In this document: one piece after another, positions 3,501-23,590 of the stretch
Layout: the number at the start of each line of letters is the position of its first letter
Position numbering within the stretch: the stretch's first letter is position 1
Source of the DNA: a bacterium
Lineage (GTDB): Bacteria > SAR324 > NAC60-12
DNA: 23,701 nt
Assembly (NCBI GenBank): GCA_965233585.1
Contig: CBDDTI010000068.1
Location: 1 to 23,701, forward strand
Reading direction: 5' to 3'
Made by a program: the position numbers and the translations under genes
The notes under the pieces: model-generated
Seen by the model: only the letters and a program-made list of their open reading frames with translations
Told to the model about the DNA's origin: nothing
Database searches by the model: none

Positions 3501-3888
3501 AGGAATGACATAAAACAGCAAGGAATATAGGTGCGAAATGATAACCGTCTCTTCTAAGTCCCTTTTTTGGTGTAACCAAGAACTGTCTCTCTATATTTCA
3601 CATACGTCTTTACTCAGTCAAAGACAAGATTGTAAGTAACTTGAGGTTCAGTGGAATTTGTACAACAGGGCTGCTTTGGCACCTCCGGGTAGTTGCCAGC
3701 ATTCACTATCTAGGTTACATTTTATGGTTTTATATGGTGTGGGCAAAAATGCACATAAGAGTCAGTACTGTGATAAAAGAAAGCAAACCATTGCATGCAG
3801 GTTAGTGAACCCACCCTTTACATGCTACAAAGGGAAAGTCACGTCCTTGCAAACCAGATGAAAGATTATTTAAGTATAAGATTTGACA
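3501..3888 (-). repeat. 3' LTR (outer 16 nt missing)
   Basis: Begins TGTCAAATC on the minus strand at 3888, directly after the PPT. Identity with the 5' LTR stops at 3501; the plus-strand TGTTATATTCCTGCCG present at 16523-16538 is absent. Confidence 0.93.
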
Positions 3889-3900
3889 GTCCCCGTCACC
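3889..3900 (-). promoter_or_regulatory. Polypurine tract (short)
   Basis: Minus-strand GGTGACGGGGAC immediately precedes the TG of the 3' LTR. Confidence 0.6.
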
Positions 3901-4061
3901 GTACTGAATCGTAAATGATTTTTTGCAAATGGAAAACCCCATACCGTGTTTAGTACAGCCATTAATTTGCCAAGAAAGAATAGGTGATCAAATCTACCTT
4001 TCTGAGAGGGTTGCCAAGCCTCCAAGTAATGGGGATACTAAGCATAGTTTCCATTTCATAA

Positions 4062-5925
4062 CTATTCAAACTGCTTTAAGACCGAATTGGGGAAAGGCGC
4101 AGTCGGGTTGCTACTAGACACAGATCCTGCATTTGGTGACATGAGAGGTAAAGAAGGTTCTTCCGGCTTAGCACAACGATAATTCTTCGTGAATTTCCGT
4201 CGAAAGAAGTAAATCATATAGACAAAGGCCCCTAATAGGATCACATAGAGTACAACAGAGAGCATATATCGTTCAACCCTAGAATACGACGCCTTGAGAA
4301 GAACTAACTTTCCGCCGAAACTCCGGTAATGAAAGAGAATTGGTTAACTCTATCCCTTCCAGACCATTTGTCAGATCGACCTCCTTGGCAATTGTCCCAA
4401 GCCACTCCTTGGCCTGGGAAAGCAAAGGTAACCGGATAATTTCATGATACCCTATCATGTCCGGTGCTCGAACAAACAGATATTCGGATGTTGATGCCTT
4501 CGGACACTCTTCAGTCAATTGAAGAAGATGGATTCCTTGTATCGATGTAATGTTCGTCTCCTTCTCACACTCAACGACCAGTTGGGTAGGTTCGGAGGTC
4601 ATGATTCGGTACAAGGAAGTAGAGATCTGAACGGCGTGCGAATGCATCTTTTTAACCCTCACATTACAAGTCCGCTCAATGTTGGAAGCACTTTGCGAAT
4701 ATAAGTTATATAAACAAAGATTCGTCAAATTCTTGGAAAGTAAGTTCATATTCGGACAGTGGTAAACTGCAGAAATCTTTTTGCAGAGTTGGAATTCAGA
4801 CGAAGTCATCTGTTTCCCAACAAGACCGTGAGTATCTAAGGCTAAATACTCAGCGGAACTTTCCACGTCCAGAATCACAGAAGAATTTCCCAAGAAAAAC
4901 GGTGCTGGTACATGTCTATATAGCTTTAAAGTGCTACCTGAGTACAATGGTAAATGCACAACTGCGTATAAATTACCCTCATTGTCACTCAGGGTGGAGA
5001 CCGGAACTTGGAACAAGATACCAGGATCCTCATGGGATGGAAGCAAATTACGTTTTCTAGCATTCGCAGCTAAATGATCGAAAGCCGATATAAGAGACTC
5101 AGGAGAAACGATCAAAGGTGAAAGCCTATTCTCCATGAGACTCATCATCCCTTGCAGAAAATCAGATAGCTCGAATCTGAAAGAATGTAACAATAATTGA
5201 ACCTGATGTTCCAAGCTATCCATCGCCTGTTTCCGAGATAAAGTAACAGATTCTTTAATTTGCAGTTGCCATTCGGAAAACTGATCCTGAATAAACTCAG
5301 TAATATTATGAATTCTGAGATCTTGTTCCTTTAATTGCTCTATAATTAATTTCTGGTTCTCCTCAGTCTGACCAATGTCAGACTTTAATTGTGCCATTTG
5401 AGCGGTGTTAAACATGGAGGTTCCAAAAGAAGCTAATCCCATAAAAGCTGCCGCAATTGCAGTAGCCGATCTGGTACGCCGTTTAAGTCTAAGGTTAGTA
5501 CTATTGGTAGAAGGAATTGCAGTAGGAAGTTGAAGTAAAGAATCCCTAAGCAAGTCTACCTGATCTCTTTGTAACTCCTTGGAGACAAATCCATCCTTTT
5601 GTGCCAATGACAACAACAAATTGATGCGATCCTGGATCCTCGTGATAGCGTACATCTCGTTCTCTTTGAATGGCGATTCGGTGTTGAATTTGTTCGAGAT
5701 TGTATTCCCCACGAGATCCATCAATACCTGAGTAGCCTGTTCGAGTCTTGGCAGAGGGATTGGAACAATGATGTGCCCATAACCACTTTCCCTAGTGGTT
5801 TCTCCGATTGCCAAGAAAAGCATCGTATTGTTGTTGGAGTGTAAATCTTGAGCTCGCCGGCCGCCCAACAATAGCATTGCCAAGAGAACTATCATCGGTA
5901 AATTTGAGAAGGTTTTGTTTTCCAT
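4062..5925 (-). CDS. env: Env, class I fusion protein of baculovirus-F/errantivirus type; 1-nt frameshift (4282-4343) separates the TM anchor
   Basis: Signal peptide MIVLLAMLLLG; furin site RLKRRTR|S; fusion peptide ATAIAAAFMGLASFG; heptad region; PLY..LKLY..P.PF and C-x7-C..C..C pattern. The TM segment MLSVVLYVILLGAFVYMIYFF-RRK is in the adjacent frame (ORF 4062-4265). Confidence 0.85.
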
Positions 5926-6089
5926 TGCTTTTCAGCTTCTCTATATCTTAACCCGGTGGGTGCTCAATGGAAAATAATGAACCCAAGACTTTTTCAACTC
6001 CAAAGAAACCTCGGTTTCTTTTATACCTTTACTTTATATCCTCTCCCCTTCCTGGAAAGAATTTTTCCCTAAGCCAGATTTCCCCCTTT

Positions 6090-6356
6090 TTACACAAACA
6101 CCTCTTGCTCAGTAACTTGTCCACGCAACTTGGTAATAAAGTACAACAACCCAAACAAAGAAAAAATAAGGAAAATCACAACAAAAATTTTCAGTTTTCC
6201 TGATCGTTTATTGCAACGGTTCAAGTTCAACCGAGTTTTGCGCATCACACTCTGCAGAATTGGAGGCCTCATTCTTCCTTCTTCTACAGAGGAGCGCAAA
6301 AAATCCGCGCACAAATTCGAGGGGGGAAGGATCGTCCGCCTTCCTCTTTCTTCCAC
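6090..6356 (-). CDS. Small overlapping ORF with one TM helix (start uncertain)
   Basis: Basic segment followed by LKIFVVIFLIFSLFGLLYFI; sits between the accessory gene and env. Confidence 0.4.
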   Translation of the reverse strand: MEERGRRTILPPSNLCADFLRSSVEEGRMRPPILQSVMRKTRLNLNRCNKRSGKLKIFVVIFLIFSLFGLLYFITKLRGQVTEQEVFV

Positions 6357-8906
6357 AGCGCCAGGTGACGTAAATGAAGCCTAGCAGACTCGCAAATAAA
6401 AGCGAGCCCACACACCACGCGAGCACAATCTTCTTGTGGTCCTCCACGTCGCCTGGTTTTCCCCAGTCCTTTGTTGCGAATCTTGGAACCCTCTCAGGTT
6501 CCGGAAAACTCAATTGATATCCTTCTTGTTGGCTTAAACGATCAAGTGCACTGAACTCCTTTTTCGGCTGTTGGACTTCTTCCTCTTCTTCTCTAAGGAT
6601 CAGTTCTTTTTTCCTCTTAAGAAGTTTCTCCATTTCCTGCTTCTCTTGCCTCACACTATCCATTACCAAGGCTTCTTCACCCGAGGTGAGTAACCTTGGC
6701 TGTTGAGGCTGCATTGGCTGGTTCACATCTTTAAGGAGGAAAACATTTAAGGAAAATTCGAACTCTATACCTTAGCGAAGTTTTTTAGGAACAAAGACTT
6801 CAAACAACAAAATTAATTCTTACCCCCATCAACTTCATTCCAAGATCCATAATTAAAACTTGGTTGGACCGCAGGTACCGGTGGTCGTTGAGTATAATTC
6901 TCAACGAGCTCCGTTGGCACTTGCCCAGTCCGGATCGCATTGGCCAACACCTGGGAAGCAAACTCGCTCTGTTGTTTAAACTTCTCATTGGCGAGTTTCT
7001 CCCGCAGAAGATCCGCCTCCAGGGTGTCCGTCAGGTTCTTATGCTTTTCCGCAGTCTTCTCCTCCGAGTCGTCCTGTTTCTTCTGGATCGCGCGGTCAAT
7101 CTGGGAGGCTGTTATGTAAGCTCCCAAACCCGCAAGACCAGTCCCAGCATACTTCCCTGCCTTTGTCCAGTAAGGATGTCGTTCGGAGAAAGTTCTCATT
7201 GCATCGCCGACCCTATTATGAAGTTTAAAGTCTTCCCTTACCTGAGGCAAGAAAGACCCCCCTTCATTGGTGATTCGCGACGCAGAACGGACATCTCCAA
7301 AGCTGGAATCCAGGGAATCCAAGGAAGAGGTTGACGATGATCTTGACAACGGTCGATCACCAGCCAAATTTCTTCTTTGCTGTGGAACAGGACGCTGCTT
7401 GTAATTGGGGATGAAGTAATTCGGAGGTTCCAATGGTGGCATGGGATGCCATCCCGAACGAGGAGCCGGTACCGGTCGTGGTACAGCTATCGCGCCTCTC
7501 GTAGGAACTCCGGAAGAACCTGGTAAAGATGCCAACGACGAAACCGATGGTGAACGTTGAATGGGGTTAGGAGGTTGGAAGGAGTCTAGCGAGGTGGTCC
7601 TGGCACGAAGATTGGTGAGAGACACTGGTGGAAGATTCGCCGCCTGAGGTCCGGAACCCGAGGTGAAACTGTGGGTCCCCGATGCACTCCCGACCCTAGG
7701 ACGTGTTTGAGTATTCATTCGGCGAATATCTTGAAGACTGAGGGTGTTGAAGACCCCAGGACCGGGCGCACCCGGCCTCGTCTTCGCCGCTCCCATGCCA
7801 GCTCCGACTCCTGTGCCAGCTCCAAGTCGCATCAAAACGTTACGACTCGGAGAAGGTGGTCCTCTCCTCGATCCACCACGTGAACTGCCAGACTTCGAAG
7901 AAGAAGATGAACCTCCCTTCTTCTTAGGTCTCTTCCCCAACTTCCTAAGAGGTGACCGCTTTCTTCTATTCGAGCGTGATGGAGGATCCGAGATGATTAA
8001 GGCCGGTTCATTCCCCGCTGGCGTATACTGCCGCCGGTAGCTCAATAGCTCCCCGAAGCTATTCACCATCTCCCATTGTCCGAAACCGTATCCGGGAGGA
8101 GGATTTTCCCTGGTGAAACAAGGGGTGTACTGCGTCGCCTCACAGTTTCTCTTGTCCTCCTCGGTGATAAATGCGCATGGGTAGGTGGTGAGCAAAGTCC
8201 GACATCTGTCCACAAGCGTTTGCTGTAGCATTGTGGTGACGATGACCTTGCCTATTTGCTCCGGCAACTTCGTATTGTCCAAGGGAATGAACATCATCTC
8301 CATCCGTTGAGACATGATATAGGAGAAGAAATCCTGTAAGTATCCATAGACCAGGGTAGAACGAGTGTAGGGTGCCTTCCGGATTACCAGATCATAGAGA
8401 ACCTGATCTAAATGTACCCCGGCCATCACCGCCCGAACGTTTTCTGGACTGAGAACGTACTCCTTGTTCGCTCTCTTGGATCTCCGAAGGACCTTCTTTT
8501 CCAATTCAAAATCATGTCGCCCATCTAACAATCAAAGTAATTAGAGCCCAGAAAATTTCAGAGAAATAGAAATTTATTTACCTAAAACTTTATTGAGGCC
8601 CAAAGCCTTGTTGTTAGTTCGAGGTGGAACACCTCTAAAATCTCGAAGCATCTTGGAGAAATAATCGAGGACACAATCACTCGGTTTGCGTCCACCTCCA
8701 AGTAGCGGTAGCGGGTAAATCGGTCTTGATGTAGTAGTCGTTGTCTCGAAGCGCGTAGGACGCTTAGGTCTGCACAAGGGAGAAGGTCGAGCACAAACGA
8801 CCCCAGTCCTATTGGAACGTCCCCCTCGCGGAATCAGACGTCTCCTCCACTTCGGTCTTGGCGTTGGAGACGCTTCCTCAGTAGACCTCTTGCGCCTCGC
8901 GTTCAT
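6208..8906 (-). CDS. Spliced accessory membrane protein, exons 8906-8582, 8524-6824, 6728-6208 (848 aa predicted)
   Basis: Two phase-1 GT-AG introns join three ORFs in frame. The product has multibasic RRKRS/RRSKR motifs, a Ser/Pro/Gly-rich middle, a coiled-coil-like part and a C-terminal TM segment IVLAWCVGSLLFASLLGFIYVTW followed by RCGRKRK. Confidence 0.72.
6729..6823 (-). other. 95-nt spliceosomal intron (predicted)
   Basis: GG|GTAAGA...TTTTCCTCCTTAAAG|AT. Its removal restores frame: ...EVDG-D-VNQPMQ. Confidence 0.75.
8525..8581 (-). other. 57-nt spliceosomal intron (predicted)
   Basis: AG|GTAAAT...CTAAT...TTGTTAG|AT. AT-rich; its removal deletes in-frame stops and gives ...NKVL-D-GRHDF. 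Confidence 0.75.
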
Positions 8907-8952
8907 CGGCCCGATTCCTGGTGCAAACTTACTAAGCAGATTCTTCAGAAAG

Positions 8953-9231
8953 TTATTCTGTTTCAGAAGCTGCTCCAGGTGTTCCGGGTCCCGCTGATTG
9001 CTCCGAATCCGATCCCATTGGCGAGGTGAAGTTTTCGTTATTCACGTGGAAGTTGAAGTTAATCGAGCCATGATTGGCCGACGGTCCTTGTGTGTTCCAC
9101 ACGTTCGAATCCGCTGAAGAATCCTGAGCAGTTGACGTCATATGCGCCATCTCTTGGTACCCCGTGTACCCTTCACCGGAAAATCCACCTCCCATGGCGT
9201 CGAACAAGAGCGGTAAAAGGAATCCAGCCAT
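8953..9231 (-). CDS. Small accessory ORF (92 aa from MAGFLLPLLF); possibly the frameshifted N-terminus of the downstream accessory gene
   Basis: Good-context ATG (AGGATGG), hydrophobic N-terminus, Gly/Ser-rich. It overlaps the open frame (from ~9042) that leads into ORF 8574-8906. Confidence 0.45.
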   Translation of the reverse strand: MAGFLLPLLFDAMGGGFSGEGYTGYQEMAHMTSTAQDSSADSNVWNTQGPSANHGSINFNFHVNNENFTSPMGSDSEQSAGPGTPGAASETE

Positions 9232-9561
9232 CCTTAAATTATTCAGTTTTGGTTGTTGTTGAAAACGAAAAGCGAACTTAAGTACCCTTACTGCTGAAGA
9301 GCAACTTTGTAAGTGAATGTCTAAGTGAAAATGAGTGATTTTTATATGAAATTTGTGGTTCCAATTCAGGAACCCCAAGATGAATACTTGGATCTGATTG
9401 GTGGAAAAAGTTTTGGCGCAAAAAATGGACAATATTTACGACGCAATTTGTCTGGCGTATTTGACAATGGGCTGCAATCTATTAGCCAAATGACAGAAAG
9501 TGATTTTGACAGCTTCCGTCTCCGTAATAGATTACAGTCAGGGATTTATTTGAATAACCCA

Positions 9562-12500
9562 CTAATGGGAAGGGGTTTGGTCGAGTTCATTGTCCCTGCA
9601 GGCTTCCAGAGGAAAAATTTCGTGAATACTGCGTTTCAATATTTTCCTGGAATTTTTGGACCTCAAAAGAACCGTTCGAACTTGACCATCTGTCCCCTTA
9701 ATTATTCGAAAAACCCTACCTAATGGCCATTGATATTGTTTCCTATTTTGCTCCTCAATTAACACCAAATCTCCGATCTTCAAGTTTGGATGTTTAGAAA
9801 ACCACCTATGTCTGGCATGAAGTTGGGTTAAATATTGTGATGTCCACAACTTCTTAAATTCTCGAGACAAATCCTGACGTTGCTCCCAACGAAGTCTCAC
9901 TTCCGAGGAGTCATCGCATTCTGTCTCAGAGAAAAAATCCTGCCATAGGCGAATACGTCTTCCAAGACAAAGCATAGAAGGCGTAATCACATCAAATGCT
10001 TCTTCAGATACGGCAAGCAGAGGGCGATCGTTAACTTGCGCCTCCGCATCCTTCATCAGGGTGAGAAAGTCGACGTAGGTCATGACTTCTGACTTATCAA
10101 GTAACTTTCTCATGGGAACCTTGATGAGTTTCACTGCCCTTTCCCAAATGCCGCCTCCGGCCGAATGAAGCTCCGTAGAGTAACTCCACTTAAACTCATA
10201 CTTGTCCGCGGCATCCTTAATGATCTCGTTATTAATGGCGATCGTTTCCTTCAACTCTTTATCGGCCTTTTTGAAGTAAAGGCCATTATCAGAGTATAAA
10301 TGGACTGGCACGCCACGAATCGACATCATGCGTCGCAGAGCAAGCAAAAAGTCTTCAGCCTCATTCGATAGAACGAGTTCCGTATGAACCGCTCTGGTAA
10401 TAAGGCAAGTAAATATGACCATATAGCAAGGATGAGTATTCCTCGCCCTTATAGTCATTTTAACTTGAAACTTTGCCGTGTAATCTACCCCAACTTTAGT
10501 GAAGGGTGGAGAATACTTTAATCTGATAGTAGGGAGAGGAGCCATGATCTGCTGACCTCTCCTCGCATTTGATTTTTGGCATTCTAAACATTTTCTCAAT
10601 ACACTTCTTATTTGAAGCCTACTAGACATAATCCAGTATTGTTGCCGCAAATGGAAGTGTGTCCAATCAACAGGAGAATGTTGATTGTCCAGATGAGTTT
10701 TTAAGATGAGTGATGTAACAAATCCATGACCTTTTGGAAGAATGATTGGAAACCTCTCAAACTCCAAAAGTGGGGCTTCAACTAATCTACCGTGCACTCT
10801 CAACACTCCCCTTTCGTCCAACTGCGGGTTTAATGGCAAAAGTTTGGAGTGTCTTGGGATATCCTGTCCCCGGTTTAGATTTTCTATTTCCTCAGCGAAA
10901 TGAGAAAATTGGGCCTGTTTGATCCAATAAAGTCGTGCACGTTGTTTATGGTGCGAAATTTTATTTGGATCTAGAATAGCTGATTTCTTACTTAGGGCTT
11001 TAATTTTCCAAATATCCACGATTTCCATGATTAACATGGTCTTCCTCAGAAGAAGATCGTGGTCTCCATAATAGTCAGCCATATTGACGACCATCATGTT
11101 TTGTGGATATTCCTCGTAAGTTTTACTTATAGTCAAATGACTATAGACAAATTGCTTCTTTACTTCCTGCAATTTATCTACTTTGGAGAAATCCACTTTG
11201 GGTATTTTCCAATCCTCTCGCGAGAGTCGCAAGAAATTTGGGCCCTGAGTCCACAAAGTTCTTTTCAATGCGCTAGGAGCACATCCACGGCTTGCAATAT
11301 CCGCTGGATTCATTTGCGTGCTCACGTATTGGAAAACATACCCAAACCCTTGAATTTTTTGTACTCGATTAGAAACAAAGGGTAACAAGGAATTTGGCTT
11401 CTTTGTTAGCCACCATAGTGTTGTTTCTGAATCAGAATAACAAAAAATCCGGTTCTTTGGAAAATTGAGTTCTTCCCTAATCATATCAGCTATCTTTGCA
11501 CACAAGAGTGCAGCCACTAATTCTAAGCGAGGCACAGAAATATCTTTTGTGGGATTAATTTTCGACTTTGCAAACAACAATGTAGATTCATAACGATTTT
11601 CCTTATTGTTAAACGTCCGTGCATATGCTGCGACTCCATGGCCCATATTCGCAGAAGCGTCGCCAAAGACATGTAACTCCGTAGAGTCATTGAACTCCAC
11701 ATGTCTAGGAAACGTAACATCTTTCAATTCAGGTAGCATTTCCAACCACCTGTGCCATTCCTGCTGCAAATTTGGGGAAAGTTTACTCTTCCAATTTATT
11801 TTCTCCTCAAAAGTACTCTTCAAGATTTTTCTTGCAAGAAGGATAAAAGGAGAAATAAGTCCCAAAGGGTCAAAAGGTCTCGCAAGCAAACTGGCTACGG
11901 AGGTTTTAGTGTCATCATTATGAATCGCCATACTGCAATAATGTCGAAAAATAAATGTATCCTGTGACGGATCCCATCTAATCCCCAAAGAAGAAGTTTC
12001 TTCGCTTAAAAACAAAGAACTTTCCTCTTTGTCAGTGGTTGTAGGTGCACGAGCCTCCTTAGGAATTCTCTTAAGGAGCTCTGGTGAATTAGTTGCCCAT
12101 TTATGGATTTTAAAATGACCTCTATCTAATAACTTACAAAGTTCTCTATACATGGTAAAGGCTTCTTCTACTGAATCACCCCCGGTGGTGACATCATCTA
12201 CATACGTATCCTTCAGGATGGTATCACACGCCCTTTTTTCAAAGGTCGTGAGGCCTGCCTCTAACAACCGGTCTTTAACAAGTCGTTGCAAGCAAGATAT
12301 GGCTTGAAAGGGTGAATCTGCCGCGCCAAAGATCAATGTTTTAAATTGATAAACTTTGGTAGTGGCCTTGGGATCGTCCGGATCCCTCCACAAGAATCTA
12401 AGATACTGTCGATCTATTGGGTCCACCTCAATTTGTAAAAACATTTTACTTATATCGCCAATAAGAGCAATTCTCCTAGTGCGAAATCTCAATTCAACAG

Positions 12501-13737
12501 CCACAATGGCCTGTTGTAGAGGTGGCCCTGGCAATAGGGAGTCATTCAGCGAAAATCCCGAAGGGGATTTCGCCGACGCATCAAACACGATGCGACATTT
12601 CGTGCTGACGCGTGTAGGATCATAGACAGCCCTATGGGGAAGGAAATATAGATCGGTCCGTCCTAAATTGCCCATTTCCTCGATCGTCTCTGTGGTCACT
12701 TCCTCAATTGTACATTGGTCAATGTAATCATTCATTGCCTTGAGGTAAGCGGCCTTTAAATCTGGATCCTTTTTCAACCTTCTCATGAGACCTTCCAGGC
12801 GGGCCTTCGCCGAGGCAATATTGTTGACCAACTTTGGTTGCTCACTTCGCCATAGAAGTCTCGTGGTGAAACGACCGGAAACTGGGTTGTATCTCAGATT
12901 CTCCGACATGCTTTCGACAGCCATAATCTCATCCACGCTGAGTTTCTCGTCAGTGTGATCTCTGGGGAGTTCTTCAATAGTCCACATCCTCTCGATATTC
13001 TTGTTAAGCTGTTCCACAGTCGTAACAAAAGTATCGATGTCCTCTTGTTGTTCTCGTAGCATCCCACAAGGTACAAGTCCGAATTTCGTCTTGATGATGA
13101 CCAAAGACTCGCCGATCTTCTGGTCAATGCCTTGTACGATTGTCCACATGTCCACGACTCCCAGGAGAATGTCCACATCGCCTCCCTTCCTCGGGATCGA
13201 TTCATTCAATTCAAGGGAATTCAGCTTCTCGCGTAAATTGCCGTCAACATGTATATTTTCATAATTGATGCTCATTATGAAAGGAACTACGAAACAATCA
13301 AAGGAAACAAAACCGAACGATGCCTTTAAATGGCATCTAACCTTCCGCGAATGTTGTACTTTTATACCATGAAGCGTGTTAATGGACAAAGTTACATTTT
13401 TATCAAGAGTTTCATGTCTTACCCCTCTCAAAGCCTTTGCAGTAATGAAAGAAGAAGTAGAACCTGTGTCCAATAGAACCCTTAATCTACCATCCTTGGA
13501 AGCTTGGTTTTGAACCATCAATGTGGGGAGTAATTGTGGTGAATTTAAATTAGGGTGTGGTAATTGAAGTTCTCCTCCCAGAGTTCTGCCTGAAAAATTA
13601 GTGAAATTATTAGAACGATGAAGGTTTGTTAAATCAAAGACTACATTAGCGTTACAAATTTTCACGGTAGGGGATTTCCATTTGTTAGAGGGCCCCCTTA
13701 CGCCCACCGGTAAGTCCGATGGGAGCCCCAAATTTTC
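9562..13737 (-). CDS. pol: Pol: aspartic protease, RT, RNase H, integrase; in frame with gag after a UAG
   Basis: VLLDTGS (PR); YFLPH..V, CRIVFDAS, DISKMFLQI, YVDD (RT); LHVFGDAS, VPRLELVAA, SDS, NPADIASRG (RH); H..C..C, GVDY, SDNG, GGIWER (IN); GDLVLI..WPLGRV C-terminus. No native ATG at the 5' end. Confidence 0.97.
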   Translation of the reverse strand, partial: ENLGLPSDLPVGVRGPSNKWKSPTVKICNANVVFDLTNLHRSNNFTNFSGRTLGGELQLPHPNLNSPQLLPTLMVQNQASKDGRLRVLLDTGSTSSFITAKALRGVRHETLDKNVTLSINTLHGIKVQHSRKVRCHLKASFGFVSFDCFVVPFIMSINYENIHVDGNLREKLNSLELNESIPRKGGDVDILLGVVDMWTIVQGIDQKIGESLVIIKTKFGLVPCGMLREQQEDIDTFVTTVEQLNKNIERMWTIEELPRDHTDEKLSVDEIMAVESMSENLRYNPVSGRFTTRLLWRSEQPKLVNNIASAKARLEGLMRRLKKDPDLKAAYLKAMNDYIDQCTIEEVTTETIEEMGNLGRTDLYFLPHRAVYDPTRVSTKCRIVFDASAKSPSGFSLNDSLLPGPPLQQAIVAVELRFRTRRIALIGDISKMFLQIEVDPIDRQYLRFLWRDPDDPKATTKVYQFKTLIFGAADSPFQAISCLQRLVKDRLLEAGLTTFEKRACDTILKDTYVDDVTTGGDSVEEAFTMYRELCKLLDRGHFKIHKWATNSPELLKRIPKEARAPTTTDKEESSLFLSEETSSLGIRWDPSQDTFIFRHYCSMAIHNDDTKTSVASLLARPFDPLGLISPFILLARKILKSTFEEKINWKSKLSPNLQQEWHRWLEMLPELKDVTFPRHVEFNDSTELHVFGDASANMGHGVAAYARTFNNKENRYESTLLFAKSKINPTKDISVPRLELVAALLCAKIADMIREELNFPKNRIFCYSDSETTLWWLTKKPNSLLPFVSNRVQKIQGFGYVFQYVSTQMNPADIASRGCAPSALKRTLWTQGPNFLRLSREDWKIPKVDFSKVDKLQEVKKQFVYSHLTISKTYEEYPQNMMVVNMADYYGDHDLLLRKTMLIMEIVDIWKIKALSKKSAILDPNKISHHKQRARLYWIKQAQFSHFAEEIENLNRGQDIPRHSKLLPLNPQLDERGVLRVHGRLVEAPLLEFERFPIILPKGHGFVTSLILKTHLDNQHSPVDWTHFHLRQQYWIMSSRLQIRSVLRKCLECQKSNARRGQQIMAPLPTIRLKYSPPFTKVGVDYTAKFQVKMTIRARNTHPCYMVIFTCLITRAVHTELVLSNEAEDFLLALRRMMSIRGVPVHLYSDNGLYFKKADKELKETIAINNEIIKDAADKYEFKWSYSTELHSAGGGIWERAVKLIKVPMRKLLDKSEVMTYVDFLTLMKDAEAQVNDRPLLAVSEEAFDVITPSMLCLGRRIRLWQDFFSETECDDSSEVRLRWEQRQDLSREFKKLWTSQYLTQLHARHRWFSKHPNLKIGDLVLIEEQNRKQYQWPLGRVFRIIKGTDGQVRTVLLRSKNSRKILKRSIHEIFPLEACRDNELDQTPSH

Positions 13738-13740
13738 CTA
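13689..13740 (-). promoter_or_regulatory. Putative stop-codon readthrough signal (UAG + 8-nt spacer + stem/pseudoknot)
   Basis: UAG GAAAAUUU GGGGCUCCCAUCGGACUUACCGGUGGGCGUAAGGGGGCCCU. GGGGCUCCC/GGGGGCCCU, CCCAUCGG/CCGGUGGG and CUUAC/GUAAG can pair. Confidence 0.7.
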
Positions 13741-16020
13741 ACTACTTTGGGGAGGGACTAAATCTTTCGACCGACCATGCAGCGATCGATGATGTCTTCC
13801 GCGACAATTATCTTGATCGCATCCCGGATGGGGACACGACGAAGCCCAATGACCTGCCTTTAAACAATTAAGGCATAGCTGAAATTCTAAAGCCTTTACA
13901 TACATGGTATCAGGTTTCATCTTTTGTGTACAATGATTAGAACTATGTCGCGGACTGTTACAAAAACAACAGGGTATCACTTCCCTTTCTCTATTGTCTT
14001 TATCACTCATCGCTGATTGGTCAGTCTTGGTTGTAGATATCACTGGTGTTGATCCTCTTCCTCTGCCCCTTCCTCTGCCTCCGCCACGACCTCTACCACC
14101 TCGAGTACCGCCTCTTCCTCTACCTGTTCCACGGCCGCCACGTGCTGCACCACCCCCCATGTTATTTGTAGCGGTTGCAGCAACCGTGTCTGTCGCCAAG
14201 ACCGTGGTTACGTCTTCTGGCTCCGACTTCTGTGAATGTTGAGCACCTCCTTTATTTCCCTTGGAATCCTTCTTCTTGCTTTTGTTATCCCCAAATTCCA
14301 TGGCTATACCAGACGGTTGGCCCAATTTGATTTTGGGGTTACTTGGATCGGCATGGTAAAAGGTCCTCGCCATAGAGACCTGCTTCTCCATCCAATCTAA
14401 CATGAAATCCAATTTATTCCTATCACTCATTTTGCCTCTCAAAGTTTCCTCCCTGTCGAGTGCCCACTGATAATCACTGCGCATTCTCTGATTGAATTTA
14501 CAGTGCAACTCGTGACAAATTGCCCTAGCGTTAAAGGTAGCTCCATCCTCGTATTGCAGAAGGCTCATCACGTAGTTGGTGGCAAATCCGAAGAACTGTG
14601 CAAGGTCCTTGTACCTATTCTCAGGGACCATCGGAAATGCAATAAGCCTCTCCCTTAGTTGACTTAGGGAGGCTTCAGTGTCACCGAAAGCTTTCTCCAG
14701 GTTCCTTTTCAATTGATCGTAACTCCCAGGTGAAAAGGTGATCTGGTGAGTGAGGTAATTCGCTGTTCCCTTGAGAGAGCTACTGAGTAAATGAAGTTTC
14801 ATGATTTTAGGAATTTTTGGATTTCTATCTACCAAACAAGTAAACATAGCATAGAACTTGTGGAACTCCAAGGGGTTACCATAAAAGTTTGGTAACTTGA
14901 CATCAGGTAGAGTGTGGTATTGGCCTGAGTAAGGCTGAGGAGCAGAAAAAAGTTCTGCACCAGTTTCCTCAATCTTCAAATGGAAACGTTGGGCCAAAGA
15001 ATCCATGTCATGGGTCATTGCCCCTGCCTGTGACTGCATGCCTGTGCCTTCTTCTTCCGCAAACCCCCTCATTAAGTTATTCATCATGAACTCCTTTTGC
15101 TGGGGAGTCAAGCTTTCGCTTTCCAGTACAAATTTAAGCATTTGCTGCCTCTGCACGTCCTTCCTTTCTTCTGAAGGCGCTCTGCTTCCCCTCCTGGTTG
15201 AGGACAAGCCTGGCACAAAGGCTCCAGCACCTTCATGCTTCTCCTCTTTTGGTTCCTTTCTCTGGCCTGCTTCAGGTTGACCTGATTCTGGAACATTATC
15301 TGCAGAGGAAGCATTAAAAGAAAGGAAAGTCTCCCCCGGTTCAGGAAAGTCTTGAAAAAGCACTGGCACGGAAACACCATCGTCTGAAAATGCAGTGTTC
15401 AGCATTTCTATCACAGGAAGCACACTTTCTCTGACCCAGTTCGTGTGTGCTTGCACAGCATGACCTAGATTCTCCCCTGACAAGAACATTAAGTACGTGA
15501 CAGTATCTAGAAACTCACGAAAAAGGGATAAGGCCATTGCCCTATAAATGTCTAAACCTTTTGTCCATCCCCTTTCTTGAGTAGTCACACCCTCCCTGAA
15601 AGACTGAAGCTTCTCTACGTAACTACAAACTAGAGCTCTTCTTGCCACCATAAACCTTTTCACTTCATCCTCGGCACAATCAGATATTAAGGCTTCTGAT
15701 GTGCCAGGATAAGCCATTCTACCGAGAGATTTATCAAGTTCTCTCAGCAGAAGGGTGACGATGGGTATTTCCCTATTGACTGGTATGTGTAACTCAAAGG
15801 GAAACCCAATTAAAAGTCTGATGAAAAGACGCATCCTATCTAGCTGTTCTTCATCACCTAAGTCTTGACCAGCGAAATAATCCTTTACCTCGCCGGCCCT
15901 GATGGCATTTCTCACGGTTTCGTAGAATGCAAGCCATTCTTGATTTCTTCTTGATCTGGCTTGCTGCTTCAGATCCATCACAGTTGGGTTATCACGTACT
16001 TCTGACCTTGTTCTTACCAT
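13738..16020 (-). CDS. gag: Gag (BEL/Pao type), 760 aa
   Basis: LPDVKLPNFYGNPLEFHKF (DUF1759-like capsid start), an RGG-rich tract, and three C-terminal knuckles: CFCNSPRHSSNHC, CLNCLKAGHWASSC and CDQDNCRGRHHRSLH. Confidence 0.95.
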   Translation of the reverse strand: MVRTRSEVRDNPTVMDLKQQARSRRNQEWLAFYETVRNAIRAGEVKDYFAGQDLGDEEQLDRMRLFIRLLIGFPFELHIPVNREIPIVTLLLRELDKSLGRMAYPGTSEALISDCAEDEVKRFMVARRALVCSYVEKLQSFREGVTTQERGWTKGLDIYRAMALSLFREFLDTVTYLMFLSGENLGHAVQAHTNWVRESVLPVIEMLNTAFSDDGVSVPVLFQDFPEPGETFLSFNASSADNVPESGQPEAGQRKEPKEEKHEGAGAFVPGLSSTRRGSRAPSEERKDVQRQQMLKFVLESESLTPQQKEFMMNNLMRGFAEEEGTGMQSQAGAMTHDMDSLAQRFHLKIEETGAELFSAPQPYSGQYHTLPDVKLPNFYGNPLEFHKFYAMFTCLVDRNPKIPKIMKLHLLSSSLKGTANYLTHQITFSPGSYDQLKRNLEKAFGDTEASLSQLRERLIAFPMVPENRYKDLAQFFGFATNYVMSLLQYEDGATFNARAICHELHCKFNQRMRSDYQWALDREETLRGKMSDRNKLDFMLDWMEKQVSMARTFYHADPSNPKIKLGQPSGIAMEFGDNKSKKKDSKGNKGGAQHSQKSEPEDVTTVLATDTVAATATNNMGGGAARGGRGTGRGRGGTRGGRGRGGGRGRGRGRGSTPVISTTKTDQSAMSDKDNREREVIPCCFCNSPRHSSNHCTQKMKPDTMYVKALEFQLCLNCLKAGHWASSCPHPGCDQDNCRGRHHRSLHGRSKDLVPPQSS

Positions 16021-16156
16021 TTTGTTAAAGCTAATGTATATATATATATATGTAATAAATTAATGTCTTAAAGTTTTTGTCTTTGATTTATCACAACTTA
16101 ATCACTAATTAAATAATAACGATGATGATTGACTTACAATTTCACCTCTGACATAC

Positions 16157-16414
16157 TCAACGTTCTCTACTGGAATTGTGTCTTGAGGGCAAATCTGACC
16201 ATAGATCATCACTCTGACAAAACCCTGGATGTAGATGATTTCTTTCACAGGCTATACACAGAATTCCTCTCTCTAACCTGATCAATCTACAAACTGGGCA
16301 GTCAAAATATCTGATACGCCGCGTCATGATATCGTAAAATCTGTCCCCACACGTAACACACGTAGCGTATCTGATCCATCTTCTTATTGGTCGATTTTGT
16401 TGTTGCTCGCTCAT
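16157..16414 (-). CDS. Upstream accessory ORF, putative zinc-binding protein (85 aa)
   Basis: ATG-initiated intact ORF between the PBS and gag. Motif CxxC-x16-CxxC-x10-CxxC-x3-H-x-H-x3-C; Arg-rich. Confidence 0.7.
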   Translation of the reverse strand: MSEQQQNRPIRRWIRYATCVTCGDRFYDIMTRRIRYFDCPVCRLIRLERGILCIACERNHLHPGFCQSDDLWSDLPSRHNSSRER

Positions 16415-16442
16415 ATTATAATTCCAGTATTAATAGAAGTAC

Positions 16443-16521
16443 AGTACCTTGGTTCAATTGGTATGATGTTTTCGCCTGCCTTCGGCCCTTAGAGGTTTGA
16501 TTTCCCGGTTAGCATGCACCA
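16443..16521 (-). promoter_or_regulatory. Primer-binding site, extended complement of tRNA-Gly(GCC)
   Basis: The plus strand reads GGTTCAATTGGTA...TCGCCTGCC...GGTTTGATTTCCCGG...ATGCACCA. These blocks are collinear with the D-arm, anticodon arm, T-arm and acceptor+CCA of eukaryotic tRNA-Gly(GCC). The CCA is 1 nt from the LTR end. Confidence 0.8.
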
Positions 16522-16522
16522 A

Positions 16523-16922
16523 TGTTATATTCCTGCCGAGGAATGACATAAAAACAGCAAGGAATATAGGTGCGAAATGATAACCGTCTCTTCTAAGTCC
16601 CTTTTTTGGTGTAACCAAGAACTGTCTCTCTATATTTCACAAACGTCTTTACTCATCAAAGACAAGATTGTAAGTAACTTGAGGTTCAGTGGAATTTGTA
16701 CAACAGGGCTGCTTTGGCACCTCCGGGTAGTTGCCAGCATTCACATCTAGGTTACATTTTATGGTTTTATATGGTGTGGGCAAAAATACACATAAGAGTC
16801 AGTACTGTGATAAAAGAAAGCAAACCATTGCATGCAGGTTAGTGAACCCACCCTTTACATGCTACAAAGGGAAAGCCACGTCCTTGCAAACCAGATGAAA
16901 GATTATTTAAGTATAAGATTTG
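16523..16922 (-). repeat. 5' LTR (outer 3 nt missing)
   Basis: Inner end reads ...GGAATATAACA on the minus strand and is followed by T-TGG (PBS). It matches the 3' LTR with 3 substitutions and 3 one-base indels. The terminal TGT seen in the other copy is absent. Confidence 0.93.
16765..16771 (-). promoter_or_regulatory. Candidate LTR TATA box
   Basis: TATAAAA on the minus strand in mid-LTR (also at 3728-3734). A variant poly(A) signal AGTAAA lies downstream at 16648-16653. Confidence 0.4.
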
Positions 16923-17219
16923 TTTTGTGTTGGCAGCATGTATATTGATGAAACGCCTGTTGATGAATGACTTTTGATCATTGAATTTTGGGTAAAAATA
17001 TCTGTAAATAGTTTGAAGAGTGTAATTATTAGATCCTTTTCATGTAGTTTATCAATTTTTATAATTTCCCTTGAATTTTTCTCAATACACGGAGGAAATT
17101 TCATTGCCATTTTTGTCGTGTAAGTGTTTGCTCAAAATTTGGTCCTCAAAATTCATTCCTTTAAGGACACCTTCCCAAAAAAAAGCATTACAGATTAGAA
17201 ATGCATGTACTTGGACCAT

Positions 17220-17880
17220 GCCAATGCATCTATTTTTTGAAAGTACTGTGTTGAACATTTCAGCACTACATGGTGCTTTTCTTTTGATAGCCCTGCCAAC
17301 TATTTCTATCAGGTTTTCATCACTCACTTTATTCATTTCTTAGCGGATCTATTAGGTTTACTTCTGAATTGCCAAACAAGCAAACCTTTATGTTGCCATC
17401 TGGTGTTAATCTAATTATGTTGCAGGAACCACATAAGTTTTCACTCATAGATGTAATGAATCCAACCCTTCCCAGAAAGCCAGGAACCCACCAGGCTTTG
17501 GAGGTGTCATTAACCTCATCTTCGTGTTTTTGTCCTTGGAAGGTTGGGCTCTACAAGCTCCTCATGTGATGCCATCTGGAAGATAAAAATTAATCAATAG
17601 ATAATACTTCTCGTTGTGTCCTCCACTGATAGGCAATCATCTAACGTCAGCAATAAAAGTCATCTGACGAATAACGTCAAATTCCTAACTTACCTTCTTG
17701 GCAGCCCGACAGGTGCAGTCAAATGGCATATACTCGGTAACTCTTAGAATGAGCTTCCTTTCATTTTACCAGTCAACAAAATCAATGACTTTGTTCTCAT
17801 TAAGACCACGTTTGGATACATTGTTTATTTTGAGCTTAAGTGGACTAGAACCATCAATGACCTTGAGTGTTTTCTCCAGG
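17220..17880 (-). pseudogene. MOCS1: Molybdenum cofactor biosynthesis GTP 3',8-cyclase (MOCS1A/MoaA) C-terminal half, non-processed pseudogene
   Basis: Minus-strand translation: [98 protein letters not shown]. Contains stops and frameshifts, plus a GT-AG intron at 17576-17693. Confidence 0.88.
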
Positions 17881-18505
17881 GTATTTCAAGATCATGAAAA
17901 AAAGTGATTTCAATCACTCACCAATCACCTGCCAAAAATAATAATTTCATTTACTCACCAATCACAATTTCGAATGGTGATTGGACCAATCACCAATTAG
18001 ATCACATAACAGTACTTTTTTGAAATAAATTTTGCTCACTATATTTCTAATGAACATTCATTTTCATAAATAGCTGTTCTTCAAAGTGAAAGTCAGTCAA
18101 TATTGACCTATTTTTCCGAAAAATATTGCCTACAATGCAGAATGGACATTTCACTATGGATGGTAAAAGGGTGTTGCACTTCATGTACAGTTCCTTCGGT
18201 TGAGGGGTTTTGATGAAACCTTGAACTATCTTGATGCCATCTGAATTGTTTAGATCAAGGATTTGATCAGCACTTGAGCTCTTCACATCGCTATGGTTGT
18301 TTTAAAAAGTTTATAAAGATATTCATAGGATGGCAATAAAATTTTTGAACATGTATTCATATGCATAATGTTATCTGATGAAGAAGGATATTGTCCACAT
18401 TTCCATTCAAAGTCTGAAACTTTATTAACTATACCATGATCTGGAGCTATAACACATGGAAACACATAATAAGACATAATTTCACCTGGTCTTCCACACA
18501 ATGGT

Positions 18506-18688
18506 CTTCCTTAGGCCTATGCAATGAGGAATGGACTAAAAATTTTGTAAAATTATTTTTCAGTCAAAAGTTATGGAGCCTTCATTGATCTTATGTAGTG
18601 ATTTTAAAGAACACCTCTACGACTTTTGACTGAAAAAATATTGTGTTAAATTTTTTAGTCCTTTCATAATTGTATGGGCCTAAGGAAG
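18506..18688. mobile_element. Fold-back MITE
   Basis: CTTCCTTAGGCC...GGCCTAAGGAAG ends. The imperfect IR continues inward (GGACTAAAA/TTTTAGTCC; TTTTCAGTCAAAAGT/ACTTTTGACTGAAAA). Confidence 0.7.
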
Positions 18689-19810
18689 GCTCCAAATGTC
18701 ATTAGTGAACAGAAACTTTTCCTCTTGTACCATGTTATCTTTATAAATAGGTCACTGTAATTTTTGTAAAAATTCTCCAGTAATGTTTTGAGAGACCTTA
18801 TTTCAATCATTTCTATATTCATCACGCACCTTCTGCATTAATTTGAACTTGATTGGTCGAGTATTTCACTTAGAATTTATTTATCAAAAACCAACTTCTA
18901 CGAGCACAACTCCCGACTACATAACAGGAAAGGAAGAAAGGAAAGAGTCCCTCTCAACCATATAATGGCAGAATTTCAAAATGCAATTACAACTTATGTC
19001 GGAATGTTCCAATTCTTGCTAGAAACGATTACTGGAGTTGTTAGGAAGCTGTTTATACCAAAAAACCACATTTCACCATACCATCATGTATTCCATTTTT
19101 AAGGTCCATGGCAAGGGGGTCATATTATGAGGTAATTATAGATAATTAAGGATAAAATATTAAACAAAAAAGATGGTCCTGCCGACATGAAGAGATATCA
19201 GTTATTTTTATGAGAGTCCAATAAGTGGTTTACGCAAAAAACACAGTGACCTGCTTTAAAAACATCACTGTAGGCAGTTGTAGGCTGATGTTTAAGGCAT
19301 CAAGTCCAGCATCTATGAATGGAAAAAATGCATTTTAGTCTCACTTGTTTTCTGCAAGTCTACACGAAGTCTGGCACGAAATAAATTGCGTTACATTGAC
19401 CCAGAGAAAAGATTTTTCCTTCTTTTTTTGTTAGTCAATAGCTCATGATTTATTAAAAGGTTGCATGATTATTTTTTCTTACCATTCAGCTAAGCTGAAA
19501 TGATGAACAACACCATTCTTTTGCCAACTTTTGAGGCTAAAAGGTCAATAGGTTGTGTTAACTAAAATCAGAATTTTCCGCTAGCGCCACCTACCGTTTT
19601 TACAAGCAAAATTGAAGTGTAACTACCAAAGTGTTCATATACTGTATTATGTACTGTACTAAGCAAGACAAAACAGCCATTTTTCAATTAAAACAATCAA
19701 CAACTTCAATATGATACCAAATGTAAGGCTATTAATGATCAAACGGATTGACATGCTGAGCAAGATAAAAAAGATCTTACCTAATAAATAAATATATACG
19801 AAAATACTCT

Positions 19811-20065
19811 AAGCACCTAAACATCTGACGGCACAAATTTGAAGAAAATCATAATTTTGTGGAAGTGTATTATTTTGTGGAGGTAGAGTCATAAAATTGT
19901 AAGATGACAGAAAATCATCAGAAATATTCATGCCACCTTTTTAGTATATCTCCACAATTTTGTGACTGTAGAGTCACAAATTTGTGGCATCAGAGTCACA
20001 ATTTTCCACACTTCCACAATTTTATGATTTTCCACAAATTTGTGCCGTCAGATGTTTAGGTGCTT
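19811..20065. mobile_element. MITE with 31-bp TIRs (PIF/Harbinger-like?)
   Basis: AAGCACCTAAACATCTGACGGCACAAATTTG...CAAATTTGTGCCGTCAGATGTTTAGGTGCTT; internal CACAA(A)TTT subrepeats. Confidence 0.8.
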
Positions 20066-20066
20066 T

Positions 20067-20514
20067 ACATTAGTAACAAAACCTCATTTGTATTTACATT
20101 CATTACATTTACAACTCAAAAGCTAAATAAAAACAAAATAAGATTATTTCATAGCTTCTTAGTGATCTTTTTCTTGTGTCCTTTTTCCTCTATTACCCTA
20201 TCTTATAAACTTTTTTTCCTGAAGAAGTGGATTCTTGGCCAGTTGACATTTTTGACTTTGACGCTTAATATATCTGCTAAAGGACCTAGTCCTAATGACT
20301 GGCTGTCAGGATGATGAGGCCATTTTCAAGGCCAATTCTTGTCCATTCTGCAAAGGAGCTGCAACATAGCAAAACCATATACATAAATATATATGAATAT
20401 ATTTTAAACATTAACAAAACTTCATTTGCATTTACATTCATTACATTTACAACTCAAATTTTCAATAAAAACAAAATAAGATTTTTTCACAGCTTCTTAA
20501 CTTATCTTTTTCTT
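20067..20514 (+). repeat. ~105-bp diverged direct repeat (~20067-20175 and ~20408-20514)
   Basis: TAACAAAAC(C/T)TCATTTG(T/C)ATTTACATTCATTACATTTACAACTCAAA..AATAAAAACAAAATAAGATT occurs twice. Confidence 0.8.
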
Positions 20515-20869
20515 CTATTGCTCCATCTTCTGAACTTTTTTCCTCTTGGACAGCTTTTGCAAGAAATCCCAGTTGAGCCATTTCCCTCTTGGCATCCTCG
20601 ATGATTAATGGGATTTGGTCCATGTTCAAGCATCCTTGATGATGGTTATTGGAATTTTATCAACATCCAAGCATCCTTGATGATGGTTAAATTCTTTTTC
20701 TCTTGGCCATCTTTTGCAAGAAATCTTGGTCAATAATGATGGTGATAATGGTGACTGCGACGGCGGTGGCCGCTATGGCAATGACAGGTCCCACTACGGC
20801 AATGATGGGGGCCGTAACGGTGAGTTCTTCTGCTTGCTGCTCTTCACAACTCTGAAACCATCTTCTGAA

Positions 20870-20961
20870 GGGTTGTCTGGATAGCTCAGAGTGGTAAGGT
20901 GATAGTTTTTATCAGAGAGATCTCGGGTTCGAGTCCTGGGGCCAACCATATCCCCAGTGTT
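20870..20961 (+). mobile_element. tRNA-derived SINE head (diverged copy)
   Basis: A box TAGCTCAGAGTGG and B box GGTTCGAGTCC, followed by CCATATCCCCAGTGTT; homologous to 23591-23701. Confidence 0.7.
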
Positions 20962-22895: not shown

Positions 22896-22992
22896 AGGTA
22901 ACAGACTCGCTAAAAAAGATCGGGGATACCCAGTTCAAGACACAAGTATTAATAACGGTGACATCACAGTGTGACACTATAGAGGTCGCGCA

Positions 22993-23401: not shown

Positions 23402-23590
23402 AGCTCGTCGCTGGTGGGATTTTTCATGCGCCAGTGGGATATTTTTCCCGCTTGGAATTAAAAAAAAAATCGTAACTTTTGCTATGTAATCACGAAACCT
23501 CTTCAATGTCTTGCCGTGACGTCATCGTCATTAATATTCATGTATTTTTATTATTTCCATGTTTTTTTAGGGAGTCTGTTACCTTTAATA

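Follow-up and report, generated by a model that had tools for sequence, protein, structure and literature searches.

The DNA analyzed here (the window, 23,701 nt) makes up contig C68 in full; the contig belongs to GenBank assembly GCA_965233585.1, which comprises 12.0 Mb in 747 contigs and is filed as a prokaryote genome. The window carries a 13.4-kb BEL/Pao long terminal repeat (LTR) element at positions 3501-16922, and all the long open reading frames (ORFs) between the repeats lie on the minus strand. The element is read on that strand, the sense strand of the initial annotation, and a window position is converted to an element coordinate (el) by subtracting it from 16923. In this direction the order is LTR, primer-binding site (PBS), ORF0, gag, an in-frame UAG, pol, a gene that we call ACC, env, polypurine-rich tract (PPT) and LTR (Table 1). 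Two of these genes, the leader gene ORF0 and the putative three-exon gene ACC, stand in addition to gag, pol and env, and both show conservation and purifying selection. Much of the following rests on comparisons with further contigs of this assembly: C640 holds a second full-length copy that is 97.5% identical to the window copy over 13,436 nt, C231 a relative that is 76% identical, C408 the 3' end of a copy, and C212 and C523 more distant relatives, of which C212 represents a third lineage with its own LTR pair and a pol protein that is 59% identical.

Table 1. Features of the BEL/Pao element in the window, in element order; a slash marks a putative splice cut.
Feature	Position	Strand	Remarks
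5' LTR	16523..16922	-	part common to the 3' LTR is 16539-16922
PBS	16494..16521	-	begins with TGG; ~28 nt complementary to a tRNA-like 3' end including CCA
ORF0	16157..16414	-	85 aa plus stop; between PBS and gag
Candidate major splice donor, T/GTAAGTCA	16130..16138	-	19 nt past the ORF0 stop, before the gag ATG; kept in C640 and C231
gag	13738..16020	-	760 aa from the ATG; C-terminal CCHC knuckles; TAG at 13740-13738
pol	9562..13737	-	1391 codons; same frame as gag, directly after the TAG
Candidate internal promoter	9341..9401	-	CCAATCAG at 9401-9394 and TATAAA at 9346-9341; ~170 nt past the pol stop
Putative ACC exon 1	8582..9231	-	ATG at 9231; frame change in the window copy within 8953-9041; continuous in C640, 216 codons + 1 nt
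Putative ACC intron 1	8525..8581	-	57 nt, GTAAAT..TTAG, phase 1, frame kept
Putative ACC exon 2	6824..8524	-	567 codons
Putative ACC intron 2	6729..6823	-	95 nt (92 nt in C640), GTAAGA..AAAG, phase 1, frame kept
Putative ACC exon 3	6208..6728	-	charged helical stretch, membrane anchor IVLAWCVGSLLFASLLGFI (Kyte-Doolittle hydropathy, KD, 2.36), basic tail of ~55 aa, stop
env, F-type class I fusion protein	4062..5925	-	signal peptide, RLKR site, fusion peptide, long helices, anchor and tail
PPT, GGTGACGGGGAC	3889..3900	-	directly upstream of the 3' LTR, read from sequence
3' LTR	3501..3888	-	begins with TGT; ends ~16 nt short of the C408 LTR end

The Pfam hallmarks of gag and pol place the element in BEL/Pao (Belpaoviridae), as the initial annotation of this DNA had proposed; Peptidase_A17, DUF5641 and DUF1759 all match. 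In gag, DUF1759 is found at 392-531 in the numbering of the stop-to-stop ORF, with an E of 1.7e-11 and 44.8 bits where the cut-off is 25.4. The 1391-aa pol has the domain order aspartic protease, reverse transcriptase, Peptidase_A17, integrase H2C2 and DUF5641, with a weak match to Asp_protease_2 at residues 84-134 (E 0.018), RVT_1 at 417-544 (21 bits, below the cut-off), the Pao-type Peptidase_A17 at 610-770 (E 2e-39), Integrase_H2C2 at 1009-1059 (E 5.8e-6) and DUF5641 at 1283-1377 (E 6.8e-22). We also note that the N-terminal ~390 aa of gag (14860-16020), upstream of DUF1759, have no Pfam match and are unusually large for a BEL/Pao gag.

The largest addition is ACC. Between pol and env the window copy has four ORF blocks, at 9435-8953, 9041-8574, 8531-6813 and 6771-6208. 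In C640 the first two of these are a single ORF that starts at an ATG equivalent to window position 9231, and the window copy must therefore have changed frame in the interval given in Table 1. The three blocks that result are joined by two GT..AG intervals that keep the frame. The edges of intron 1 in the window copy read ...AAA GTT TTA G/GTAAAT and ...TTGTTAG/AT, and equivalents that are likewise phase 1, GT..AG and in frame are present in C640 (57 nt), C231 (60 nt) and C212 (55 nt, GTAAGT...TTTATAG), that is, in four copies of three lineages. Intron 2 has the edges ...GAT GGG G/GTAAGA and ...CCTTAAAG/AT in the window copy; C231 lacks it, as do the database proteins P0037 and P0038. In these the reading frame continues unbroken into the anchor exon and on to a shared ending, ...EPLELEPLK, which we regard as the decisive observation. 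The C640 exons sum to 2868 nt, or 956 codons. From these features we infer that ACC is a three-exon gene between pol and env, with its splicing and its function read from sequence. The large spliced membrane protein that the initial annotation had seen here is thereby upheld, intron-2-less relatives included. Its suggestion of regulated splicing keeps the conserved in-frame GT..AG intervals and the intron-less orthologue, and is overstated beyond them.

ACC has relatives outside this assembly. Exon 2 has 17 other homologous proteins at 41-84% identity, six of which cover 95-100% of it and are 567-611 aa long. Among 1.84 billion proteins, ACC has 32 representatives at E<=0.001 (28 at <=1e-10 and 18 at <=1e-30), all of them unnamed European Nucleotide Archive (ENA) proteins; none exceeds 570 aa, and 25 have fewer than 250. 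Within the assembly, C212 has a 173-aa ORF and a 1061-aa ORF at the same place between pol and env, and in the latter hhalign recognizes the C-terminal module of the ACC profile (94.9%, E 4e-8, 202 columns); likeness between C212 and ACC exon 1 is weak (E 0.019). An ORF between pol and env on contig C47 was considered as a further ACC relative and is not supported as such, since it has a short motif resembling ACC but an hhalign probability of 4.9% over 23 columns. The C47 region itself (23001-29355) has a BEL/Pao-like pol end and, after it, two ORFs that contain membrane segments and an F-type env that has decayed and is 38% identical. As to base composition, the Ser/Pro/Gly/Arg-rich part of ACC exon 2 (7001-8000) has a GC content of 0.54, against 0.40-0.46 elsewhere in the element.

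Comparison of the window copy with C640 shows a strong deficit of non-synonymous change throughout ACC. Non-synonymous and synonymous differences (Nd/Sd) number 1/19 in the first part of exon 1 (proportions per site, pN/pS, 0.006/0.39; binomial p 3.7e-12), 8/20 in its second part (0.027/0.198; p 3.9e-7), 23/71 in exon 2 (0.018/0.17; p 4e-25) and 14.7/23.3 in exon 3 (0.036/0.216; p 1.3e-7). Selection on the extra ORFs was among the checks proposed in the initial annotation, and both genes show the deficit (p 4e-7 to 4e-25 in ACC, p 4.4e-7 in ORF0).

ORF0 was first noticed as a zinc-finger ORF before gag, and this description holds: its 85 aa contain four pairs of CxxC/HxH type in a zinc-ribbon-like arrangement, C-x2-C ... 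C-x2-C ... C-x2-C-x3-H-x-H-x3-C. The best Pfam comparison is with the double zinc ribbon DZR_2, at an E of 0.016 that is below the cut-off. The C231 orthologue is 55-60% identical and keeps every Cys/His pair. For ORF0, Nd is 48.3 and Sd 38.7, with p 4.4e-7 for the non-synonymous deficit and synonymous sites that are saturated. The likeliest role for the product is that of a small zinc protein that binds nucleic acid or has a regulatory task.

A third extra gene, a small ORF with a transmembrane segment at 4062-4343, had been proposed at the other end of the element, and this one falls away. The window env ORF (5931-4279) is 550 aa long, with a signal-like N-terminus, a furin-type site RLKR/RTRS, the hydrophobic stretch ATAIAAAFMGLASFGTSMF and long helices. 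In C640 (620 aa) and C231 (623 aa) env is continuous and extends for 70-80 more residues through a membrane anchor; the C640 protein has its RLKR at residue 146 and its anchor at 550-568. In the window copy the anchor lies in another frame, as the 93-aa ORF 4062-4343, and the two pieces found by tblastn meet at 4291-4319. Sequencing contigs that differ from the window copy by one base in length at position 4290 make up most of the depth there, 88.5 of 109.9, 87.1 of 138.3, 95 of 137.7 and 3.97 of 3.97 in runs X1-X4. The supposed separate gene is the C-terminal anchor and tail of env, and the element therefore has two extra genes, ORF0 and ACC, and not the three first counted.

By its close relatives and its predicted fold, env is an F-type fusogen, like the F proteins of baculoviruses and paramyxoviruses. 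The Pfam family Baculo_F (PF12259) is carried by 16 of 24 database homologues of env, and it recognizes the env of C231 (E 1.9e-14; 53.6 bits, the cut-off being 24.1), which is 79% identical to that of C640, as well as the C212 env (E 4e-11; 42.7 bits). A structural model built from 22 sequences has 125 Foldseek matches at E<=0.001, with the F proteins of respiratory syncytial virus (RSV) and human parainfluenza virus 3 (hPIV3) on top (best E 2.1e-6, probability 1.0). VIA aligns the model with RSV and human metapneumovirus (HMPV) F proteins at Z 6.6-7.0 over 266-352 residues, including 8wsq_F (RSV F) at Z 7.0 over 352, and the env sequence profile matches the PDB 'fusion protein' entry 9w4c_A (E 5.6e-6).

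At the gag-pol junction, gag ends ...PPQSS-TAG and pol goes on in the same frame (ENLGLPS...). A single in-frame TAG is found here in the window copy, C640 and C231, in agreement with the stop-separated junction first described. Expression of Gag-Pol by readthrough of the UAG is suggested by this conserved in-frame stop, which is its sole basis. A check of synonymous sites past the UAG found no outlier; it was crude, its ungapped register failing after about codon 45.

Several further signals may bear on expression. The candidate T/GTAAGTCA between ORF0 and gag could be a major splice donor or the edge of a small leader intron, and an AG lies ~11 nt upstream of the gag ATG. Downstream of pol, the spacing from CCAATCAG to TATAAA is 55-56 nt in the window copy, C640 and C231, and the pair lies 105-115 nt upstream of the ACC ATG, inside a non-coding island that is 78-90% identical to C231 between flanks of 30-47%. 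In C212 a TATA box, TATAAAAG (CCTATAAAAGG), is found 83 nt upstream of the ACC ATG. The CCAAT and TATA pair suggests that ACC has an internal promoter. A second non-coding block lies at 6097-6157 (el 10766-10826), past the end of ACC and ahead of the env start codon; its identity to C231, 85-90%, is above that of most of the coding sequence, and it is followed at 6004-6019 by a 16-nt palindrome, AGAAACC GA GGTTTCT; block and palindrome are possible cis-elements for env expression. Joints within contigs from four sequencing runs of one study add little; no RNA run was among those listed for this stretch, and such contigs cannot reveal splicing. One joint of high depth, 5944->9828, has a shorter side of 20 letters and long loose ends and was read as an unrelated contig; the joints 16181->16440 and 16600->16797 have a depth of 2-4 in one contig each and were not used, and none of the listed joints falls at the putative ACC introns.

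The ACC protein itself has a distinctive layout. Exon 2 encodes, in order, a helical domain, an R-x-K-R site, a Ser/Pro/Gly/Arg-rich disordered region, a Gly/Ala-rich hydrophobic stretch and a long helix. In a model of exon 2 built from 32 sequences (mean predicted local distance difference test score, pLDDT, 58.1) the helical domain spans residues 29-167 (pLDDT ~90) and contains four conserved Cys, disorder covers 172-426, and helices follow at 429-547. Columns that are invariant include R189, K191 and R192 of the R-x-K-R site, the LGAG..G..GA.K stretch and the SGW..MPP motif. The one strong hydrophobic segment of ACC is the exon 3 anchor listed in Table 1. In C212 the large ORF opens with a Thr/Ser/Pro-rich, mucin-like region, and the N-terminus there is more signal-peptide-like. 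Foldseek against PDB and BFVD gave nothing at E<=0.001, a PDB profile search nothing below E 0.36, and VIA wide matched the long helix 466-537 alone, to generic coiled coils at Z <= 7.2, with the N-terminal helical domain barely covered. In the absence of a family or fold match, the role of ACC is therefore judged from composition and topology only. The Cys-containing domain, the R-x-K-R site, the Ser/Thr/Pro-rich disorder and the C-terminal anchor favor a secretory route. The most likely reading makes ACC a mucin-like membrane glycoprotein of type I that is cleaved at dibasic sites and that might serve, with the F-type fusogen, as a second envelope protein. A predicted complex of env (28-545) with ACC exon 2 (22-178) had a score of 0.00, which speaks neither for nor against such a pairing.

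The repeats at the two ends, direct repeats of 89-178 nt at 3512-3885 and 16551-16922, join into a single LTR pair that is 98.4% identical (380 matches, 3 mismatches and 3 gap columns). A TATAAA lies within the 5' LTR at 16771-16766. The 5' LTR stretch 16523-16538 matches the longer 3' LTR ends of C640 and C408. The LTR end of C408 reads ..ACA, and the 5' LTRs of the window copy and C640 are without the TGT that opens the 3' LTRs. The assembly yielded no tRNA gene that matches the PBS; within the window, ARAGORN detected no tRNA and an Rfam search no family.

Proteins of the element match 20 contigs of the assembly by tblastn, with pol-like matches on 19 and env-like matches on six. BEL/Pao elements are known only from animals (profile of the ICTV, the international virus-taxonomy committee; PMC2774666, in its available part), and the element-bearing contigs are therefore most likely host-animal DNA that was binned with the bacterium. 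In the C231 piece 7001-23500, a partial second copy lies upstream of the main one at positions 740-2650 of that piece, with a leader whose ORF0 is broken and the first ~460 aa of gag, which makes for a tandem or nested partial element. The right flank of the window element contains three short dispersed repeat families that are 79-91% identical, at 20074-20499, 20904-20964, 21520-21615, 22891-22986 and 23626-23686; one of them holds a GGTTCGA.TCC box-B-like motif suggestive of a tRNA-derived short interspersed element, and ARAGORN and Rfam found nothing there.

The initial annotation took the near-identical LTRs as a sign of recent activity. The identity is as stated above, and the recent activity does not follow from it, since LTR identity is no clock here. 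The LTR pairs differ at 6 of 386 columns in the window copy and 13 of 384 in C640. Between these two copies, gag, pol and env together have only 5 non-synonymous changes over ~6,319 non-synonymous sites, against 64 synonymous changes (pS 0.036), which indicates that selection was at work, in lineages that were replicating, while most of their divergence built up. Nor can the LTR differences be read simply as time since insertion; recombination may lie behind them, or the assembler may have mixed copies. Inside ACC (6208-9231) pS between the same copies is 0.17-0.39, 5-10 times the gag/pol/env value, and the spacers on either side are nearly identical (14 of 328 aligned bases differ between pol and ACC and 4 of 281 between ACC and env), which suggests that the ACC block was swapped between lineages by recombination.

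These observations can be combined in a model of how such an element might be expressed. A full-length transcript from the LTR would serve as genome and as mRNA for ORF0 and gag, ORF0 would be translated first from every leader-containing RNA, and occasional UAG readthrough, as in gammaretroviruses, would supply Gag-Pol. ACC would have a CCAAT/TATA promoter of its own directly behind pol, or else be expressed from a leader-spliced RNA. Its two short phase-1 introns would be removed from mRNA only and would therefore persist in the genomic RNA, and intron loss in the sister clade would fit reverse transcription of a partly spliced RNA. Alongside the F-type fusogen, the protein would take the part of a second envelope or cell-surface protein, as G does next to F in pneumoviruses.

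We consider it probable that the element is a five-gene BEL/Pao provirus with two selected extra genes and with expression and protein roles broadly of the kind just proposed. The fuller picture, a complex belpaovirus lineage that may still form enveloped particles, with two glycoproteins, an internal promoter, a zinc-ribbon regulator, UAG readthrough and ACC alleles that recombine between co-circulating lineages, is a tentative extension that we would call possible rather than probable. A number of points weigh against the five-gene reading. The LTR termini are ragged, with 3' LTRs that stop at three different points in the window copy, C640 and C408, and no target-site duplication flanks the window element; both may be effects of assembly. 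Frameshifts interrupt env (near 4290) and ACC exon 1 in the window copy, and three frame changes interrupt the ACC of C231, an element whose gag, pol and env are open; for this last reason ACC may be dispensable, or decaying in some copies. ORF0 is broken in the upstream partial copy on C231 and in the C408 copy, where cysteines have been lost; the 79-aa leader ORF of C212 keeps the RRW motif and the last C-x2-C...H...C alone (E 0.035), and a protein database search found no ORF0 homologue, ORFs so small being possibly missing there. The 86 nt from the UAG fold no better than shuffled sequences (minimum free energy -26.1 against a mean of -26.3 kcal/mol, z 0.06, in a model that does not cover pseudoknots). 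For env, neither the window ORF (E up to 0.1) nor the intact C640 protein (E up to 1) matches Baculo_F directly, and the structural model has a pLDDT of 58.8 and TM-scores to F proteins of 0.2-0.35. Searches of Pfam, PDB sequences, folds and the Atlas gave no match for ACC, and its relatives are absent from JGI metagenome contigs and GTDB genome contigs. Its N-terminus is weakly hydrophobic, with no 19-aa window at KD 1.6, its exon translations (exon 1 from C640, exons 2 and 3 from the window copy) have 5 N-x-S/T sequons in all, and its basic clusters could be nuclear-localization signals instead of convertase sites.

The last of these points lead to the main rival, in which ACC is real and selected but is a membrane-anchored regulatory or host-interaction protein that faces the cytoplasm or nucleus; its basic clusters would be nuclear-localization or RNA-binding signals, a P-P-N-Y would be a late-domain-like signal, and it might act in assembly or budding, in RNA export or in countering host silencing. 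The subthreshold N-terminus and the few sequons fit such a protein, as do the placement of its RRKR, RPKR, RSKR and RRKR sites within long Arg/Lys/Pro-rich stretches, the PPNY motif of the window clade, and a long helix that matches generic coiled coils alone. However, a compact helical domain with its four conserved Cys and the invariant R-x-K-R-S/A fit a secretory route better, the C212 orthologue has a more canonical signal-like N-terminus and a mucin-like opening of its ORF (its start was inspected), and PPxY is not kept in the other clades. The tail of ~55 aa past the anchor is also long for a tail-anchored protein. We doubt this alternative, yet it deserves to be taken seriously. An unlikely one is that the extra genes are passengers, ACC having been gained as DNA from the host or another foreign source, ORF0 being an upstream ORF maintained chiefly for translational control of gag, and neither being needed for replication. 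Introns are unusual in a retroelement gene and readily accounted for if it entered as genomic DNA, neither C231 nor the window copy has an intact ACC while gag and pol are open in both, and its raised pS fits a separately exchanged module. Against this, three lineages with pol proteins down to 59% identity carry ACC in the same position, with intron 1 in phase; it is under strong purifying selection; no cellular homologue was found among the 1.84 billion representatives, its 32 matches being unnamed; and the Cys/His pattern of ORF0 is conserved as protein, beyond a mere open frame.

Finally, the genes could be chance open frames, or the whole an assembly chimera of repeats in a short-read, bin-type assembly. 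The contig does come from a mixed assembly, its element has the ragged LTR ends and missing target-site duplication noted above, and the public-run contigs that align with the element measure, in the listed pieces, a few hundred bases and hold many variants. But the same 13.4-kb order is found on two independent contigs and the same gene order in two further lineages, ACC exon 2 and env each have full-length matches among database proteins of other assemblies, and the non-synonymous deficits are far beyond chance. This explanation is largely refuted and seems to us very improbable.

How far does this layout depart from what is described? The ICTV profile gives Belpaoviridae one to three genes, 4.2-10 kb, and gag and pol that are continuous or overlapping; PMC3118150, in the part available, gives BEL/Pao the same size range and few elements with env. 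An F-like env in BEL/Pao has already been reported, in the form of the roo F-like protein (PMC13524379, available part). The portions of the mollusc and annelid surveys at hand do not mention env or extra ORFs for BEL/Pao, and PMC13524379, to the same extent, does not mention accessory genes or splicing alongside F-type env elements. The same five-gene layout was not found in the literature, Repbase and GyDB being outside this search. The proposal that this is an undescribed lineage of enveloped belpaoviruses is therefore right in that the layout exceeds the ICTV profile, and goes too far as regards the envelope, since an F-type env in BEL/Pao is not new. What we did not find described in that literature is the combination of a pair of conserved accessory genes, of which one has putative introns, with a candidate internal promoter and a gag-pol junction with an in-frame stop.

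If the reading is correct, the picture of BEL/Pao as simple elements of one to three genes and 4-10 kb would change, and accessory genes and layered expression would have arisen outside Retroviridae and Caulimoviridae. With one clade that lost an intron and one that kept it, the element also offers a tractable case for the survival of introns in a genome that replicates through RNA. ACC adds a protein family without known relatives beside an F-type fusogen, and bears on cell entry by invertebrate endogenous retroviruses.

Several features have parallels in known systems. Gammaretroviruses make Gag-Pol by UAG readthrough. The junction of this element is of the same type, with gag and pol in one frame and a single UAG (in three copies), and differs in that no unusually stable downstream fold was detected. 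The study of Oikopleura Tor elements reportedly uses the term 'internal promoter'. Tor elements and the LTR elements of bdelloid rotifers (PMC5408684) are precedents for extra ORFs in invertebrate LTR elements; those are Ty3/gypsy-like, have other ORF3 types, and in the available part of that source none is reported with such an intron-containing gene.

The closest parallels to env are among invertebrate elements. Errantiviruses (the gypsy group of Metaviridae) are alike in having an F-like fusogen, with a furin-type site followed by a fusion peptide, and their env is presumably expressed from a subgenomic RNA (both from the available part of PMC13524379); their pol is Ty3/gypsy, whereas that of the present element is of Pao type (Peptidase_A17, DUF5641). 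Mosquito BEL/Pao elements have likewise acquired a viral glycoprotein gene, a chuvirus-like one (same source and extent). Theirs is a class III, gB-like glycoprotein, unlike the class I F-type env found here beside a second, unrelated membrane-protein gene. Drosophila roo resembles our element in having a BEL/Pao-type pol with an F-type env downstream. Roo is ~9 kb long and is described with gag-pol and env only. Compared with that description, the present element, at 13.4 kb, adds the zinc-ribbon ORF, the putative three-exon 956-codon gene and the gag-pol UAG.

In overall plan there is an analogy with complex retroviruses. Spumaviruses have an internal promoter and accessory genes, and lentiviruses have multi-exon accessory genes. 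Our element appears to share with them genes beyond gag, pol and env, a putative multi-exon accessory gene whose introns would stay in the genomic RNA, and a candidate internal promoter. It differs in that its pol is BEL/Pao, its host is presumably an invertebrate, its accessory gene lies between pol and env, and its genes have no sequence likeness to theirs. On the fuller picture that we call possible, the gene-expression strategy of spumaviruses and lentiviruses would have been reinvented independently in an invertebrate element.

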